From assembly GCA_020833025.1 (NCBI GenBank), contig JAJHRB010000019.1, positions 1-25,055 of the forward strand: DNA of 25,055 bases, read 5' to 3'. A program made the position numbers and the translations under genes. Origin of the DNA: Thermoproteaceae archaeon (GTDB lineage: Archaea; Thermoproteota; Thermoprotei; Thermoproteales; Thermoproteaceae). Below the pieces are notes generated by a model. That model had not been told where the DNA came from. It saw nothing but the letters and a program-made list of their open reading frames with translations, and ran no database searches. Positions 14,884 through 24,216 of this stretch are shown piece after piece. Position 1 is the first letter of the stretch, and the number at the start of each line of letters is the position of its first letter.

Positions 14884-15528
14884 ATGAATGCCGTGAGGCG
14901 CTGGAGCGACTTAAAAAGAATAGGCGAGGAGCTCGGCCGCGGCTGGGAATTACGCCGCTCCCTGCCGCCGCCCGGCCTTTTCGTGCTGAACGAGAGGGAC
15001 ATGATCGACCCCTCTGAAGTAGAGCCCCTCTGCAGGCACGACGGCAACGCCGTGTTAGTTTACATTGCAGCGCGAATCGGAGACAAGCACTTCATTTACG
15101 GGCGCGTCAAGCCGTCCCCGAGAATTGCGTGTCCTGTCGTTACATTTATAAAGAGCTTCAGGGACCCCGGAGAGGCGCTAGTGGTACTGCTGGAGTACGC
15201 GCGCCGCATTGAGGAAATACCTGACACTAGGCTCAATATCGACATACTGCGGGAGTACGGCCTCTGCGAGGTGTCCAGGTACGCGCTCCTGTGCGCGGAG
15301 AGCATAGAGCGCACGTTGAGGAGGAGACTGGAGGAGAGACTGAATGCCGCGCCGGCACACGCAAGCCGCGACGCGCTTGCAGCAGTGCAGGAGCCGGCAG
15401 GGGAGCAATGGGGCACTGCGGCGAGGTGGCTTGAGGAGCTCGTGCGCGCGGCCGGCGAGGCGGACGCAGAGGGGCTGAGGCGGTGTCTGGCCGCGTGCGT
15501 GAGGTCGTGTCTGCTCCAGAGGGCATGA
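14884..15528 (+). CDS. Hypothetical protein
   Basis: Start reassigned to ATG 14884 because TATA-like CTTTATCC lies about 20-28 nt upstream. ATGA overlap with the next gene. No family recognised. Confidence 0.65.
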   Translation: MNAVRRWSDLKRIGEELGRGWELRRSLPPPGLFVLNERDMIDPSEVEPLCRHDGNAVLVYIAARIGDKHFIYGRVKPSPRIACPVVTFIKSFRDPGEALVVLLEYARRIEEIPDTRLNIDILREYGLCEVSRYALLCAESIERTLRRRLEERLNAAPAHASRDALAAVQEPAGEQWGTAARWLEELVRAAGEADAEGLRRCLAACVRSCLLQRA

Positions 15529-15830
15529 ACGAGAAGGAGCTGGAGCTGCTGGAGGCGCTGAGTAAAATCTGCGCATCGCCGAGGTACTTCAGACTGCTGG
15601 TGGAGAGCTGCATGCTGGCGAGACTCGCGGCGTCAAACATACAGGGATCGGTGAGGCTAAGGGCGTCTCTCCTCGGCCCGCTCGGCGAGGACATGTCAGT
15701 TGTGAAGAGGGCAGCAAACGCGTTGAAGTCGCTTGAGAGGCGCGTGGGGAGAGTTGCCGACGCGCGGCTCTTGAAGAGGGCAGCAATTGAGCTCGCGTAC
15801 GAGTACGTAAAAAGGGCGCTTGGCCTCTAG
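15525..15830 (+). CDS. Small helical hypothetical protein
   Basis: 101 aa from ATG 15525, translationally coupled (ATGA) to the previous gene. Confidence 0.65.
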   Translation: MNEKELELLEALSKICASPRYFRLLVESCMLARLAASNIQGSVRLRASLLGPLGEDMSVVKRAANALKSLERRVGRVADARLLKRAAIELAYEYVKRALGL

Positions 15831-15863
15831 GGCTTCGGGCCGGGCGCCGGTTTCGCGCGCTCC

Positions 15864-15887
15864 CTTTCAATCCTTCTTTTGAGATTC
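15864..15887 (-). CRISPR. Solitary CRISPR-type repeat (no array), Thermoproteales type
   Basis: Minus strand GAATCTCAAAAGAAGGATTGAAAG, 24 nt, ending in the ATTGAAAG 5'-handle. It is 22/24 identical to the Pyrobaculum repeat GAATCTCAAAAAGAGGATTGAAAG as I recall it. One copy only in the window. Confidence 0.75.
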
Positions 15888-15916
15888 CGGGCCCTCTTGA
15901 CAAGTCTCCCCGCATT

Positions 15917-15932
15917 CTTTTAAGCATTTCCG
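15917..15932 (-). promoter_or_regulatory. BRE + TATA upstream of the solitary repeat (leader-like)
   Basis: Minus strand CGGAAATG-CTTAAAAG ends 29 nt before the repeat. The BRE fit is better on minus than on plus. Confidence 0.55.
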
Positions 15933-15985
15933 CCGCGGTCCTGCTGCCGGGCCGAAGGGATTTCCACTGGACGCCGCGAGACCGC

Positions 15986-16690
15986 GTGAGACCTATCAGG
16001 GCCGTCACGGTCTTTTCTCTTGACGGCGGCGTCGGCAAGACGACAATTGCGTGCACTCTCGCCGTGGCCAAGGGCTTCACGATGATCATAGACGCGGACT
16101 GGGAGAAGGCTGACATCTCGCAGCTCTTCAGGGCGCCGAGGAAGCCAGGCTGGCTGGCTCCGTTTATCAACGGCTCGCGGCCCTACGTGCACCGCGTCAA
16201 CCCGATGCTCTACGTCGTGCCCGGCTACGATGCCGCCGAGTTCTACCAGCAGCACGGCGAGGACGTGGCCGGCGAGTATCACCAAGCGCTGCTCGAGTGG
16301 ATTGAGGCGCTGCCGAGGTTCGTCGCGTCGCTCAGAATTCCCGTGGACACCGTCATTATTGACACGCCTGCCGCCGTGAGGCTCGACGCGCTCTCCAAGC
16401 TGCAGTCAGCCGGCTCCTTCAACCTCTTTGTTGCCGACCGCCGCCTGCTGTCGCGAATTTCCGACGTCAAGGCGGAGCAGTACAGGCGCTACATGACTTA
16501 CGCCGCGCTCGCGGCTGTGAACATGCTCGACCGGGACGAGCTTAAAATAGCTAGAAAGATCGCGCCGGTTGCCCTCAAGCGAGTTAGAATAGGCGAGTAC
16601 TACAGCGAGACAGTCGCGGGGGCTATTCTCCGCGACCGCGATAATAGAAGGGCAATTGATGTGATTCTCGCGCGCATAAAGACGGCGTGA
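15986..16690 (+). CDS. ParA/MinD-superfamily ATPase, TadZ/CpaE-like
   Basis: AVTVFSLDGGVGKTT (deviant Walker A), MIIDAD (A'), VIIDTPA (Walker B). GTGA-coupled to the secretion ATPase. Confidence 0.8.
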   Translation: MRPIRAVTVFSLDGGVGKTTIACTLAVAKGFTMIIDADWEKADISQLFRAPRKPGWLAPFINGSRPYVHRVNPMLYVVPGYDAAEFYQQHGEDVAGEYHQALLEWIEALPRFVASLRIPVDTVIIDTPAAVRLDALSKLQSAGSFNLFVADRRLLSRISDVKAEQYRRYMTYAALAAVNMLDRDELKIARKIAPVALKRVRIGEYYSETVAGAILRDRDNRRAIDVILARIKTA

Positions 16691-18216
16691 TTTACGCCCA
16701 CGCCGACAGCTCGCTGCGCGCCCGCTGCTGGCTCCGCAAGGAGGGCATTATCGTGGACAGAGGCGTGAGGACTGACGTCTGCATAACAGAGGACCTGATG
16801 TATGTTGTAATCGACCCGAAGCTGCCGGACGAGCTCCATAGCGCGCTCCTCCTCCTCATGCTGAGAGGCGCCGTGCCGCCGGACGAGAGAGAGTACCCCA
16901 GGCTGGTCAAGTCGGTGTCCGAGGGGCTGAGGGACCGCTCCGTCTGGTCCCTCTACAAGGACTACAGGGACGTGGTGCACTACCTGCTGGACAGGTGGTC
17001 CGGCGCGCGCGAGTACGCCGGCTACGGCGCCATCGAGGCGCTCATGCGGGATCCCATGCTCACAGAAATAGTAATCCCGCAGCCGGCGGCGCCCGCCGCC
17101 AAGTACACGTACGTGCCGAGGGGCCTCAGGGAGCAGCTGGACTACATCAAGTTCCAGATGGTTGAGCTCGGCCGCTACAGACGCGTTATCGCCGTTCGCA
17201 ACGAGCTCAGGCTCCCCACTAATATTGTCATTCCCGAGCCCCTGATGTACGTGGTTGCGAAGCAGCTGCTGCCCTCGCTCACTATGGACCGCCCCATGCT
17301 CACCAGGGAGGACCAGATCTACAGGGCGAGAATTGCGGCCGACCTCCTCGAATTTAACGTCAACGTGAGGAAGGTCTCGGCCCACCCCAAGCCCTCTGAT
17401 GCGCTCCTGAGGCCCTACGTGGCGAGATCGAGGGCCGCGGAGGGAGCGGGGGCCGAGCCGTACAGGCCCGGGGGGCTCGAGGTGCTGGCGCTGGCCTCTC
17501 TCGTGCTCGAGACGCGGGGCTCTGTTATATTCTCGGGCGGCATGGGCACTGGTAAGACCACGCAGCTAAACCAGCTGCTCTACATGACGCCGCCGTGGTT
17601 CCAGGTTGTTGTGATAGAGCGCGGCGCCCGCGAGATATGGGCCCCCCTCGAGGGCCAGCTGCTCCACATCTCAGTTCCGTCCGAGGACAAGCTGTGGGCA
17701 GCCCTCGACCAAGCCCTCAGGTACGGGACGCTTTTCACGCTGGTAGCGCTGGCAGAGGCCAGGACTCCGCAGGAGTTGAGAACTCTCGTGAACTACAAAC
17801 TCACGGGCCACGGCGCATTAACGACGATACACGCAGACTCGGTGAGGGACGTGCTGCTGCGAATCGCGGAGGCTAGGGCGCCTCAGGAGGGCTTGGATGG
17901 CACACTGGTCATTCAGCTCTCGGCCGCGGGCGGAGTGAGATACGTCAAGGAGGCCAGGGCGGTGATTGCGGGAGGCGGGGAGGTGGAGGTCGCGGACACG
18001 GCGGAGATCACGCCAAGGCTCGCCGACTATGTGAGAGAGGCCTACGGAACCAGCCTCAGGGAGGAGCTCGCCCTCCGCGTCAAGGCCCTCTTGAAGGCCG
18101 CCGGAGTGGACGACCCGCTGGCCGCCAGGAAGGCCATTGTCGAAACGGTCTGGAGCGGCAGAATAGACCTCAAGGCAGCCGTGAGGGAGGAGGCAAGAAG
18201 GTTCGGCTACGGCTAG
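16687..18216 (+). CDS. Type II/IV secretion-system ATPase (TadA/VirB11/ArlI family)
   Basis: DPMLTEI, SVIFSGGMGTGKTT, VVIE, Walker B region LAEAR, His boxes GHGALTTIHA. Confidence 0.88.
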   Translation: MIYAHADSSLRARCWLRKEGIIVDRGVRTDVCITEDLMYVVIDPKLPDELHSALLLLMLRGAVPPDEREYPRLVKSVSEGLRDRSVWSLYKDYRDVVHYLLDRWSGAREYAGYGAIEALMRDPMLTEIVIPQPAAPAAKYTYVPRGLREQLDYIKFQMVELGRYRRVIAVRNELRLPTNIVIPEPLMYVVAKQLLPSLTMDRPMLTREDQIYRARIAADLLEFNVNVRKVSAHPKPSDALLRPYVARSRAAEGAGAEPYRPGGLEVLALASLVLETRGSVIFSGGMGTGKTTQLNQLLYMTPPWFQVVVIERGAREIWAPLEGQLLHISVPSEDKLWAALDQALRYGTLFTLVALAEARTPQELRTLVNYKLTGHGALTTIHADSVRDVLLRIAEARAPQEGLDGTLVIQLSAAGGVRYVKEARAVIAGGGEVEVADTAEITPRLADYVREAYGTSLREELALRVKALLKAAGVDDPLAARKAIVETVWSGRIDLKAAVREEARRFGYG

Positions 18217-18623: not shown

Positions 18624-19820
18624 GTGAGGCGCGAGGACTTCTACATCGCCGCAGCGCCGGTGTTTGCCACGTATCTCGGCGTGGTGTCGGGGAGCGAGGC
18701 GCTGAAGTACACGTCCTTCAACACCGCAGAGCTCGACGAGGCGGAGTCCAGGAGGCTCTTCATTGCATCGCTAATGCCGACTCCCTCCACTCACTTCACC
18801 GAGGAGAGGGAGGAGGCCGCCAGGCACTTCGGCTACGCCCTGGCGCAAGAGGAGGCGGGAGTTGACAGGCAGGTCGTCGTTCACTCCTTCCTGGACTCCA
18901 TGAGGGCACTGGCGACGGCGAGAGTAGAGGCCAGGATGCGGCTGTACGAGTCTGTGGCGTCGTCGCTGGGAGCCATGTTCCTGCTTCCCCTGTTCCTTCT
19001 CTTTCTCTGGGCGGTGGGCATTCTCGCGGCAGATCCTGCGCTCCTGCTGGCCCTGATCTTCGGCATTACGGCCGCCATGGCCGGGGCCGCCCTCGCGGTC
19101 TCCCCCATCGACCTCAGCGTGTGGAGGACTTACGAGTGGTCCATCCCGCTGGGGCTTGCCGCAGCTGCGTTAACCGCGCCGCTCAGCCCGCCGGCCGCGT
19201 TTATAGCCTTCGGCGCTGCGACCTTTTTCTGGCTTCGCATCAGGGACAGGCTGTGGTGGTTTGACATACGGCGCGAGGTGCCGCCCATGCTGCGCTCGGC
19301 CGCGGCCATGCTGAAGGAGGGCGCCCCGCCCGACGTGATACTCGCCAGGCTTGTCGGCAGGTTCAGAGTTGCCGCGAGGATCGCGTACGGCTACTTCATA
19401 CCGTCCCGCTACTTCGTCCTGGCAAAGGCGATGTACAGGGCAATTGTCGAGGCCGGAGGCGCCGCGGCGCTGAAGTCCGTGGAGTACATCCAGTCTGTGG
19501 TAGACATTGAGAGCGCCTCGGTGAGGAGGATGGCCAGACAGGCTGCCGCGTACTTCGCGCTGTTCACCGCGGCGGTAATAGTCATTGCGCTCGCGGTGTC
19601 GTTAGCAGCAAAGCAACTCTCAGCGCTCGAGTCGGGCTACAACGTGTTCTTCGCGCCGCCTCCCTACGAGGAGCTCAAGGCGGTCCTGGCCACTGCAATG
19701 TCCCTCGTGGCGGCAAGCTACGTGGCGGTCTTCATGGCGCCCCTCGGCGTGCACCGGTCGGCGCTGCTGGGAGGCGCCGTCGGGCTGGCACTGCAGCATG
19801 CGCTGGGCGCCCTTATGTAG
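18624..19820 (+). CDS. Type IV pilus membrane platform protein (TadC/ArlJ-like)
   Basis: Multiple TM helices alternating with two cytoplasmic segments (RREVPPMLRSAAAMLKEG.P). Located between the TadA-like ATPase and the pilin. Confidence 0.72.
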   Translation: MRREDFYIAAAPVFATYLGVVSGSEALKYTSFNTAELDEAESRRLFIASLMPTPSTHFTEEREEAARHFGYALAQEEAGVDRQVVVHSFLDSMRALATARVEARMRLYESVASSLGAMFLLPLFLLFLWAVGILAADPALLLALIFGITAAMAGAALAVSPIDLSVWRTYEWSIPLGLAAAALTAPLSPPAAFIAFGAATFFWLRIRDRLWWFDIRREVPPMLRSAAAMLKEGAPPDVILARLVGRFRVAARIAYGYFIPSRYFVLAKAMYRAIVEAGGAAALKSVEYIQSVVDIESASVRRMARQAAAYFALFTAAVIVIALAVSLAAKQLSALESGYNVFFAPPPYEELKAVLATAMSLVAASYVAVFMAPLGVHRSALLGGAVGLALQHALGALM

Positions 19821-19868
19821 CCGGCACGCGGGCCCCAAGCCTTTTCCTCCTCCGGCTCCCTCACATCC

Positions 19869-20360
19869 ATGCCGCGGGGCGAAGCCGGCACGAGAGTCAG
19901 AGGCCTCACGACGGTAGAGGCCCTGCTGATAGCGGCTGCGTTCATTCTCGTCGGCGTTATCGGCGTGCTAACATTTCAGGGAATCGGCAAGTCCGCGGCC
20001 GAGGCCCTGAGGGCAGGCGCGATAGTAACGGCGGACAGGGGTGGCTTTGACATCACGATAGAGGTCCTGAACGGCAAGCTCAGCGGGATCTACCTGCAGT
20101 ACGGCCAGTCAGGCCAGTCGCTGGGCCAGGCGCCGCCTGGTCAGTGCGTCGTCGCGCGGAACAATCAAGTGCAGACGGGCGTCACGTCGAGCAGCATAAA
20201 CCCGCCGCTCGTGGCGGGGCAGTCCGCCACGTGCAGGTTTAACGTGGGCCAGCAGCTTCAGCCCGGCGTGCAGTACACCTATGTGGTCTACGCGGTCGAC
20301 GCGTCGAGCGGAAAGGCCGTTCAGGTGGCCAAGGGGGTCGTGACCGTCGGCATATCCTAG
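19869..20360 (+). CDS. Archaeal type IV pilin (class III signal peptide)
   Basis: MPRGEAGTRVRG|LTTVE with Glu at +5, then a hydrophobic stretch ALLIAAAFILVGVIGVLTF and a beta-rich globular domain with 2 Cys. Confidence 0.88.
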   Translation: MPRGEAGTRVRGLTTVEALLIAAAFILVGVIGVLTFQGIGKSAAEALRAGAIVTADRGGFDITIEVLNGKLSGIYLQYGQSGQSLGQAPPGQCVVARNNQVQTGVTSSSINPPLVAGQSATCRFNVGQQLQPGVQYTYVVYAVDASSGKAVQVAKGVVTVGIS

Positions 20361-23159: not shown

Positions 23160-24216
23160 TCACCGCGTTAGATTGCGCGCGGCGCAGGCGTCGTGAGCGT
23201 AAAGGCTGACTACGGTGGGCGCGTGCCAGCACATGCAGTCGGGCTCCATCTCAGAGTACGCCACGCAGCCTGGCTTGGAGGCCACCGCGTATACCGAGAA
23301 TGAGAGACTGGCGCGCGGGTCGCGTGCATGCAGCGCCGCTCCCGTGAGCGATCTGCACGAGCCCAGCACGCTGCAGGAGCAGCTGCGCCTCCAGCACCGT
23401 CACTCTTATGATATTACCCGTGTCCTCGCCTCTGTCGTCGCGCTCGGCAAATGTCGCCGCTAACTCACTGCCCTTAACGCCGATTGTGTAAGCTGCTAGG
23501 CCGCCGGGAGATGGGTAGAACACCTCTTCGGCCGAGATCTCTGACGCAACTTGAACTAAAATATAGAGCGACGGGGCTATGCCCCCAGCGCCTATGAGGA
23601 CGGGACAGCGGGCGGGCCCGAAGCCCAGCCTAAAGACAGCGGCCACTGCGTGTATGAACTGCTCGGAGCCTGGCGCTACCCGCACGACCAGCAGCGACAC
23701 CGGGACCTTGTCCACTGTCGTGACGTTCCGGAGCTCCCAGAAGTACCGCCTGGGCTGTACCATCCTGCAGTAGCCTCCCATCAGGACACTTACCCTGACG
23801 CTCTCGCCTGCCGCAAGCCTGTCCGCGTCAACTGCGAAGACCCCGAGGGTTCTGTAGGAGAGGTCCAGGTCTGTTATTAACGCCAGGACTGTCAGGCTTC
23901 TCGCGCGCTGGTCGCGCAACGCAGCTCCGAGTCTCGCCAGGGCCGCGCGTCGAGCGCCGCCTCCCCGAGCCCGCACGCGCCTCCGGGCTTTACAAGAGAG
24001 CCGCTGGGCAGCAGGGCATACAGCGTCGCGCAGAAGGCCGCACCCAGTCGCGTCGACCACCTTCAGCGTCAACAGCCACCCGAGCCCCTTGTAGCAGGCC
24101 ACCGCGGAGTTCCGAGAGTACTCAGTCGCGGTGGGCTGCGCGCAGGCGTGGTAGAGGAGCACGGGCGCCGGAAGGCCGGCGCATCCAAGCGCGATCGCGA
24201 GCCGCGACCTGCGCAT
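23160..24216 (-). pseudogene. Putative secreted protein, possibly frameshifted
   Basis: ATG 24216 lies 12 nt after the previous stop, with signal-like MRRSRLAIALGCAGLPAPVLLYHACAQ. The ORF runs to 23251, while a second frame (23160-23369) looks like an alternative C-terminus. Confidence 0.45.

Follow-up and report, generated by a model that had tools for sequence, protein, structure and literature searches.

A single CRISPR repeat with a truncated leader, inserted antisense in a pilus operon of a Thermoproteaceae archaeon, and its dispersed kin

We analysed a 25,055-nucleotide stretch of DNA (the window) from a Thermoproteaceae archaeon which contains a conserved pilus operon. The operon genes run on one strand and comprise three genes of unknown function, a ParA-like ATPase, a T2SSE ATPase and membrane proteins. 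Antisense to them, between a small conserved gene and the ParA-like ATPase gene, lies one CRISPR repeat preceded by a leader. A solitary repeat with a leader-like promoter had been predicted here from the letters of the window, with correct coordinates for the repeat (15864-15887) and an overall range (15809-15935) that we found adequate. The features of the locus are as follows.

15483-15830, plus strand: conserved gene of the pilus locus (101/115 aa), its 3′ end antisense to the predicted transcript of the unit
15809-15813, minus strand: T5 tract, a possible archaeal terminator, within the antisense of the 115-aa gene
15828-15985, unstranded: lineage-specific insertion of ~158 nt, from the stop of the 115-aa gene to the GTG of the ParA gene
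15831-15863, minus strand: unique 33-nt trailer from the repeat to the stop codon of the convergent gene, with no second copy in the genome
15833-15850, unstranded: left arm of an imperfect inverted repeat (partner 15940-15957) that brackets leader core and repeat
15864-15887, minus strand: single 24-nt CRISPR repeat, its final 8 nt (15871-15864) being the ATTGAAAG handle
15888-15943, minus strand: truncated CRISPR leader core of 56 nt, homologous to the leader of a 63-repeat array
15917-15931, minus strand: leader promoter, BRE-like GGAAATG and TATA CTTAAAAG (TATA at 15924-15917), followed by 29 nt (15916-15888) and then the repeat
15944-15985, minus strand: unique 42 nt from the leader core to the ParA start, retained in the JGI and ENA contigs
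15986-16690, plus strand: ParA/MinD-like ATPase gene with a GTG start, the first gene after the insertion
16687-18216, plus strand: T2SSE-family (TadA/PilB-like) secretion ATPase gene (PF00437)

Read on the minus strand, the window letters give BRE/TATA, 29 nt, the repeat, the unique trailer and the T5 tract in this order, and each element of the original prediction is thus present. A single exact copy of the 24-mer is present in the window, none appeared in 100 shuffles, and no second repeat could be found within the 25,055 nt when up to three mismatches were allowed, in line with what had been claimed. The window had also been said to lack cas genes, and among its scanned ORFs we identified no member of a cas family. 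The 115-aa gene has a coding score of 0.49 and homologues at the same position in five of nine genus loci. The predicted transcript of the unit showed no special fold (z = -0.17), and no target-site duplication was visible by eye at the unit junction. The bracketing inverted repeat spans 18 nt with 78 % complementarity, for which the chance probability is roughly estimated at ~0.06, and we regard it as only a lead. A CTAG adjoining two of the genome's repeats was considered as a target site and dropped, since CTA here is simply the convergent gene's stop.

In the genus genomes inspected in which the upstream gene can be aligned, this gene and the ParA gene overlap by ATGA, and in 16 metagenome loci with an alignable upstream gene the gap between the two is -4 or -13. 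None of 75 metagenome loci, collected by a scan with the ParA protein and no more than 71 % identical, carries a CRISPR repeat within 3 kb, and the unit is absent from this position in nine genus genomes; conservation of its position in relatives was not observed. The overlap in relatives, together with the lack of a repeat there, indicates that the ~158 nt were inserted in this lineage alone. Within the insertion, the central 80 nt (leader core and repeat) are the only part with kin in the genome. The spacer-like segment after the repeat gave only chance-level matches of 12-16 nt elsewhere in the genome, and the 33-nt trailer, which is unchanged in JGI, ENA and Logan contigs, matched nothing among the viral contigs and phage records searched.

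To place the unit we turned to the whole assembly (126 contigs, 1.56 Mb, 62.6 % G+C). The window repeat is identical at 23 of 24 positions to the 63 repeats of an array on C47, and the exact 24-mer is found at eight genomic sites, the window and seven others, as a single copy at each. Upstream of each of the eight is a homologue of the C47 array leader. Given the near-identity to the C47 repeats and the full 24/24 identity at seven other sites, the window repeat is, judged by its sequence, a genuine CRISPR repeat of the genome's own family and not a chance resemblance. Comparison with the real repeats and leaders of this genome thus bears out the predicted kinship, with the C47 repeat one base away, and the leader-like promoter turns out to be part of a real but truncated CRISPR leader. 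The TATA stands at -37 or -38 from the repeat in 20 leader-repeat junctions of the genome (-38 in the window unit), and the same promoter word with the same spacing is present in every leader found in relatives from the genus. This fits the ultra-conserved CTTAAAA-type, nearly invariant CRISPR promoter described for Pyrobaculum arrays (Bernick et al., PMC3396285).

The window leader is the shortest among the units. Its homology ends 56 nt upstream of the repeat, past which alignment is no better than with shuffles, and its core is closest to the copy on C9 (53/56 identical) with 41-49 of 56 positions shared with the others. Certain leaders form close pairs, namely C9-C66, C10-C44 and C11-C89. 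Across seven independent exact units the repeat shows no changes (0/168) compared with 44 changes in 392 positions (~11 %) of the adjacent 56-nt leader; at the rate of the leader, an unchanged repeat would be expected with a probability of ~2e-9. The invariance of the repeat beside a drifting leader implies that the repeat is maintained by selection or homogenisation.

A census of the genome identified about 16-17 units consisting of a leader plus one repeat, as against six arrays of at least two repeats, divided between two repeat families; a strict pattern recovers 20 leader-repeat junctions. In closed genomes of the genus there are at most four leaders per repeat family and, among the leaders found, all are followed by at least four repeats. 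The neighbours of the units include housekeeping genes such as those for ribosomal protein S17, ThiI and DAHP synthase/prephenate dehydrogenase. Relative to their neighbours the units are antisense in seven cases and sense in four, and the repeat frequently abuts or overlaps a convergent gene's stop codon. The flanks of the units on C44, C18 and C9 are not adjacent in five relatives, so these units mark rearrangement junctions. The gene that follows S17 in relatives could be traced to C105 through a weak 40-aa match only, and a look-up of one gene from C89 returned nothing. Genes for tnpB (PF07282) lie directly upstream of, and co-oriented with, two of the leaders (C9:24334-24555 and C11:1684-2253), an association with a roughly estimated chance probability of ~4e-4 among ~16 units. 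On C27 the leader, repeat and downstream gene match those of C11, but tnpB is missing.

A number of individual units have features of their own. The distal leaders of C9 (~24110-24150) and C11 (~1735-1775) share a ~39-nt segment at 97 % identity but in inverted orientation, which looks like a small invertible or hairpin-flanked element within the leader. On C44 (2153-2192) the 3′ part of the repeat is duplicated, with a 16-nt copy immediately after the full repeat and no spacer between them, and the 170-nt gap between the convergent DAHP synthase/prephenate dehydrogenase genes there consists entirely of leader and repeat. On C10 (4996-5019) a convergent gene encoding 493 amino acids takes its five terminal codons and its TGA stop from the reverse complement of the repeat. 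Similarly, the S17 frame on C9 extends through the repeat sequence.

Four independent assemblies concur on the single-repeat junction. A JGI contig, 99.75 % identical to the window with 16 SNPs, has the identical order of gene, trailer, repeat, leader and ParA, and an ENA contig assembled with MEGAHIT carries identical trailer, repeat and leader core. A Logan contig (k=31) extends out of the gene across trailer and full repeat into 6 nt of leader and ends at the point where the sequence becomes common to other units. We nevertheless considered an artefact in which the cells carry a normal hypervariable array from which assemblers emit only the shared path of leader, repeat and trailer. In its favour, single-repeat units were seen only in metagenome-assembled genomes (this one and one in G009) and never in closed isolate genomes of the genus, and the copy of the window leader in a sister strain bears a spacer. 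Against it, three different assemblers and samples yield the same junction, including the last Logan k-mers, which span trailer, repeat and leader. ENA and Logan contigs show precisely the full repeat plus 16-nt partial repeat of C44 and also reproduce the layout of tnpB, leader, repeat and S17 on C9, and the same assembly resolves arrays of 63, 10 and 6 repeats. An artefact of this kind is therefore largely excluded, and we rate its likelihood as very low; the agreement of the contigs argues against assembly collapse and for a real single repeat, at least in the dominant genotype. The unit in G009, a metagenome-assembled species of the same genus, is a leader with one repeat in the middle of a contig (C26:12524-12584).

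The sister strain represented in the ENA data is ~99.9 % identical around the unit, and there the two sides of the unit are joined to other partners. One contig (A, k141_60352) contains the 115-aa gene, the trailer, the repeat and a full-length leader, followed by a gene for an AAA_21 ATPase. The other (B, k141_138966) contains ParA, the 56-nt leader core and two repeats separated by a 37-nt spacer, the second repeat being of the C47 variant; beyond these is an ornithine-cyclodeaminase-like gene, and an 11-nt duplication is located at the leader-repeat junction (L128:790-830). The first repeat of contig B is of the A-variant and the second of the G-variant that characterises the C47 array, a pairing that favours recombination over in-place uptake of a spacer. 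The two distal genes are absent from the genome analysed here, and exact-protein look-ups with both returned only the same ENA contigs. When the AAA_21 gene was searched against viruses, distant ATPases were the only matches, and the 37-nt spacer matched none of the viral contigs and phage records searched. Either the sister strain has an island between the operon genes with two co-oriented leader-repeat units, or flanks have been exchanged between arrays; both readings entail recombination at the repeat or leader in a nearly clonal population. The different partners in a strain this similar indicate that the site recombines. The possibility raised beforehand that relatives carry a full array here holds in part, as the same leader is followed by repeat, spacer and repeat in a near-identical strain, but by a single repeat in this genome and in the JGI contig.

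Two further observations concern the pilus locus. Of 43 listed differences between the window and the ENA sister strain, 41 cluster at 19128-20184, which covers the 3′ part of a gene for a 398-aa protein and the small gene that follows it, and two fall in the 3.2 kb nearer the CRISPR unit; we take 19128-20184 to be a hypervariable surface or pilin region. In the closed genome of another species (G005) alignment of the T2SSE gene at this pilus locus (C1:1306581-1309641) stops at residue 350 of 509, and ~270 nt later there is an antisense array of four repeats with a leader (array at 1292-1524 of the locus), the downstream pilus genes being missing. This array is a second, independent junction between CRISPR and the pilus locus within the genus.

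The machinery that a repeat-derived RNA would need in trans is encoded on other contigs, as the original prediction supposed. C46 encodes Cas6, Cmr1, Cmr3, Cmr4 and Cas10/Cmr2 (type III-B), Csx1 and Cas3′′, and Cas1 is encoded on C118, so that Cas6 and type III-B/I-A effectors are available. Cas6 (C46:28916-29728) was recovered by the PF10040 and TIGR01877 profiles, PF01881 having given none. C46 also contains two copies of a second-family repeat, identical and directly oriented, ~12 kb apart (16584-16605 and 28623-28644). The stretch between them holds the Cmr genes, csx1 and one leader, with Cas6 and Cas3′′ just outside, a layout that would be expected if a circle carrying a Cmr cassette, leader and repeat had recombined into a chromosomal repeat.

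We consider it fairly probable that the unit is a spacer-less minimal CRISPR locus, with a 56-nt leader remnant, an intact BRE/TATA and one repeat, whose RNA output is incidental. The insertion separated two translationally coupled genes of the pilus operon, and did so in this species only. The unit is one of ~16 with a leader plus one repeat, from two repeat families, which behave as dispersed, recombination-prone sequences. The leader promoter is predicted to fire towards the repeat and produce a short transcript, which Cas6 (C46) may cut 8 nt before the end of the repeat to give a AUUGAAAG-tagged RNA. The body of this RNA would be flanking DNA, that is the antisense of the intergenic region and of the last codons of the upstream gene, and it probably ends near the T5 tract. 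In type III systems a target complementary to the full tag signals self and does not trigger Cas10. If loaded by Cmr, the RNA would encounter a target whose anti-tag is complementary throughout, and because the sense transcript holds the complement of the whole tag we would expect it to be read as self, leaving Cas10 untriggered. Effects on the operon would be a by-product and may include the loss of start/stop coupling, an antisense promoter with its transcription, and sense-strand segments rich in T. For the repeat, it has been suggested that its A-run acts like a terminator on the reverse strand (Bernick et al., PMC3396285). The site may still gain spacers or recombine with other arrays, as in the sister strain. 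One repeat suffices for adaptation in E. coli according to Yosef 2012, as cited in PMC3396285. Taken together the site looks like one that has been emptied and is recombination-prone rather than a dedicated pilus regulator, and the suggestion that it could seed or form a minimal array is a fair description. The perfect conservation of the repeat counts against a minimal locus, however, since it hints at continued selection that a mere relic would not need.

A related proposal, which we put forward tentatively as a possible one, is that the leader-repeat units of this lineage multiplied about five-fold and act as portable sites of recombination or attachment, with the window unit an empty site or scar. 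Gene cassettes could then enter or leave, and the chromosome rearrange, through the units; candidate cassettes are the putative island of the sister strain at the window site and the Cmr-bearing stretch of C46. That the window unit is specifically an empty attachment site or the excision scar of a gene island we consider doubtful. On such a model the sister-strain island, running from the AAA_21 ATPase gene to the ornithine-cyclodeaminase-like gene, would lie between two co-oriented units, and recombination of repeat with repeat would remove it, leaving one repeat, a truncated leader and both ends of the island. ENA contigs A and B do end in genes that are missing here, with both units co-oriented in a strain otherwise ~99.9 % identical, but the two contigs are unjoined, which makes the island a conjecture, and reciprocal exchange with a distant array would be equally possible. 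Support also comes from the direct, identical second-family repeats that flank the Cmr genes and a leader on C46, from the units at synteny breaks on C44, C18 and C9, and from the tnpB genes that abut two leaders. The imperfect inverted repeat around the window unit would be in keeping with an attachment site, although it is weak. Target-site duplications were not found, no integrase was identified, and the AAA_21 gene gave no informative viral relatives, all of which speak against the model.

The original prediction had linked the unit to control of the pilus locus. A dedicated regulator would work through a crRNA-like RNA which, loaded by Cmr or Cascade, cleaves or silences the transcript of the 115-aa gene and ParA and so tunes a likely virus receptor. 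The promoter, repeat, T5 tract and antisense geometry that this would need are present, Cas6 and Cmr are encoded in the genome, the repeat is under strong constraint, and in G005 an antisense array of four repeats truncates the T2SSE gene of the same locus. This geometry is generic, however, with the same unit beside S17, ThiI, DAHP synthase and others in both orientations (antisense in seven, sense in four), and the window unit is conserved in no relative. Searches found no partial-match target elsewhere in the genome, nor a trans target of the predicted 50-nt segment in genome or viruses. The unit is also far from cas genes, unlike known regulatory mini-arrays (bioRxiv 10.1101/2023.03.03.530964), and in the sister strain the gene-side repeat is driven by a different leader. 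We therefore judge a dedicated regulator improbable. The proposed link to pilus control finds no backing in an architecture repeated at ~16 loci with unrelated flanks and absent from relatives at this site, and the same recurrence leaves the alternative role as a decoy or anti-CRISPR unsupported.

Viewed as a minimal CRISPR locus, the unit bears on the birth, movement and death of CRISPR arrays, which are poorly understood and for which ~16 units with intact repeats are relevant material. The window unit is caught in two alternative states in strains ~99.9 % identical, making array seeding, collapse and repeat-mediated rearrangement directly testable in these hot-spring samples. The consequence for the pilus operon is modest, a coupled gene pair having been uncoupled and now facing an antisense promoter.

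Several known systems resemble the unit to varying degrees. Like a CRISPR array it has a family repeat, a leader promoter at the conserved distance and Cas machinery in the genome, but it falls short of the two or more repeats of an array both here and in the JGI contig, the sister-strain leader being the one with repeat-spacer-repeat. With viral SRUs and RNA anti-CRISPRs (PMC10651486; bioRxiv 10.1101/2023.03.03.530964) it shares one repeat identical or nearly so to that of the host array, a promoter of its own and the lack of a second repeat. Unlike viral SRUs (PMC10651486) it resides in a chromosomal operon conserved across the genus and not in a virus, plasmid or cas locus, has a bona fide CRISPR leader, and is followed by a trailer without a virus match. 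Repeat-like sequences have been reported to be depleted in intergenic regions outside cas loci (Shmakov et al., bioRxiv 10.1101/2023.03.03.530964). The creA RNA of creTA, scaRNA and crlRNAs are repeat-derived RNAs that Cas proteins can load, as is predicted here; the unit differs from them in its distance from cas genes (on C46 and C118) and in lacking a degenerate second repeat, partial complementarity to a promoter and conservation in relatives. IS elements and MITEs are similar in their many copies, their presence at synteny breakpoints and their alternative junctions in near-identical strains, and two sister units, though not the window unit, adjoin tnpB. The unit is unlike them in consisting of CRISPR leader and repeat sequence with no transposase of its own, and has here an 18-nt inverted repeat that is imperfect and weak, with no target-site duplication by eye. 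Minimal or orphan CRISPR loci, which serve in adaptation assays and are also met with as remnants of arrays, have a leader with promoter, one canonical repeat and cas genes elsewhere in the genome, and on the basis of these shared elements the unit appears to work like, and qualifies as, such a locus. It departs from them in its ~16 copies per 1.56-Mb genome, a leader cut to 56 nt, perfectly conserved repeats, and a location at a coupled operon junction, with kin at synteny breaks, in place of a former array site. What is new relative to known minimal loci is thus the multiplicity of the units, their perfect repeats and their link with rearrangement.
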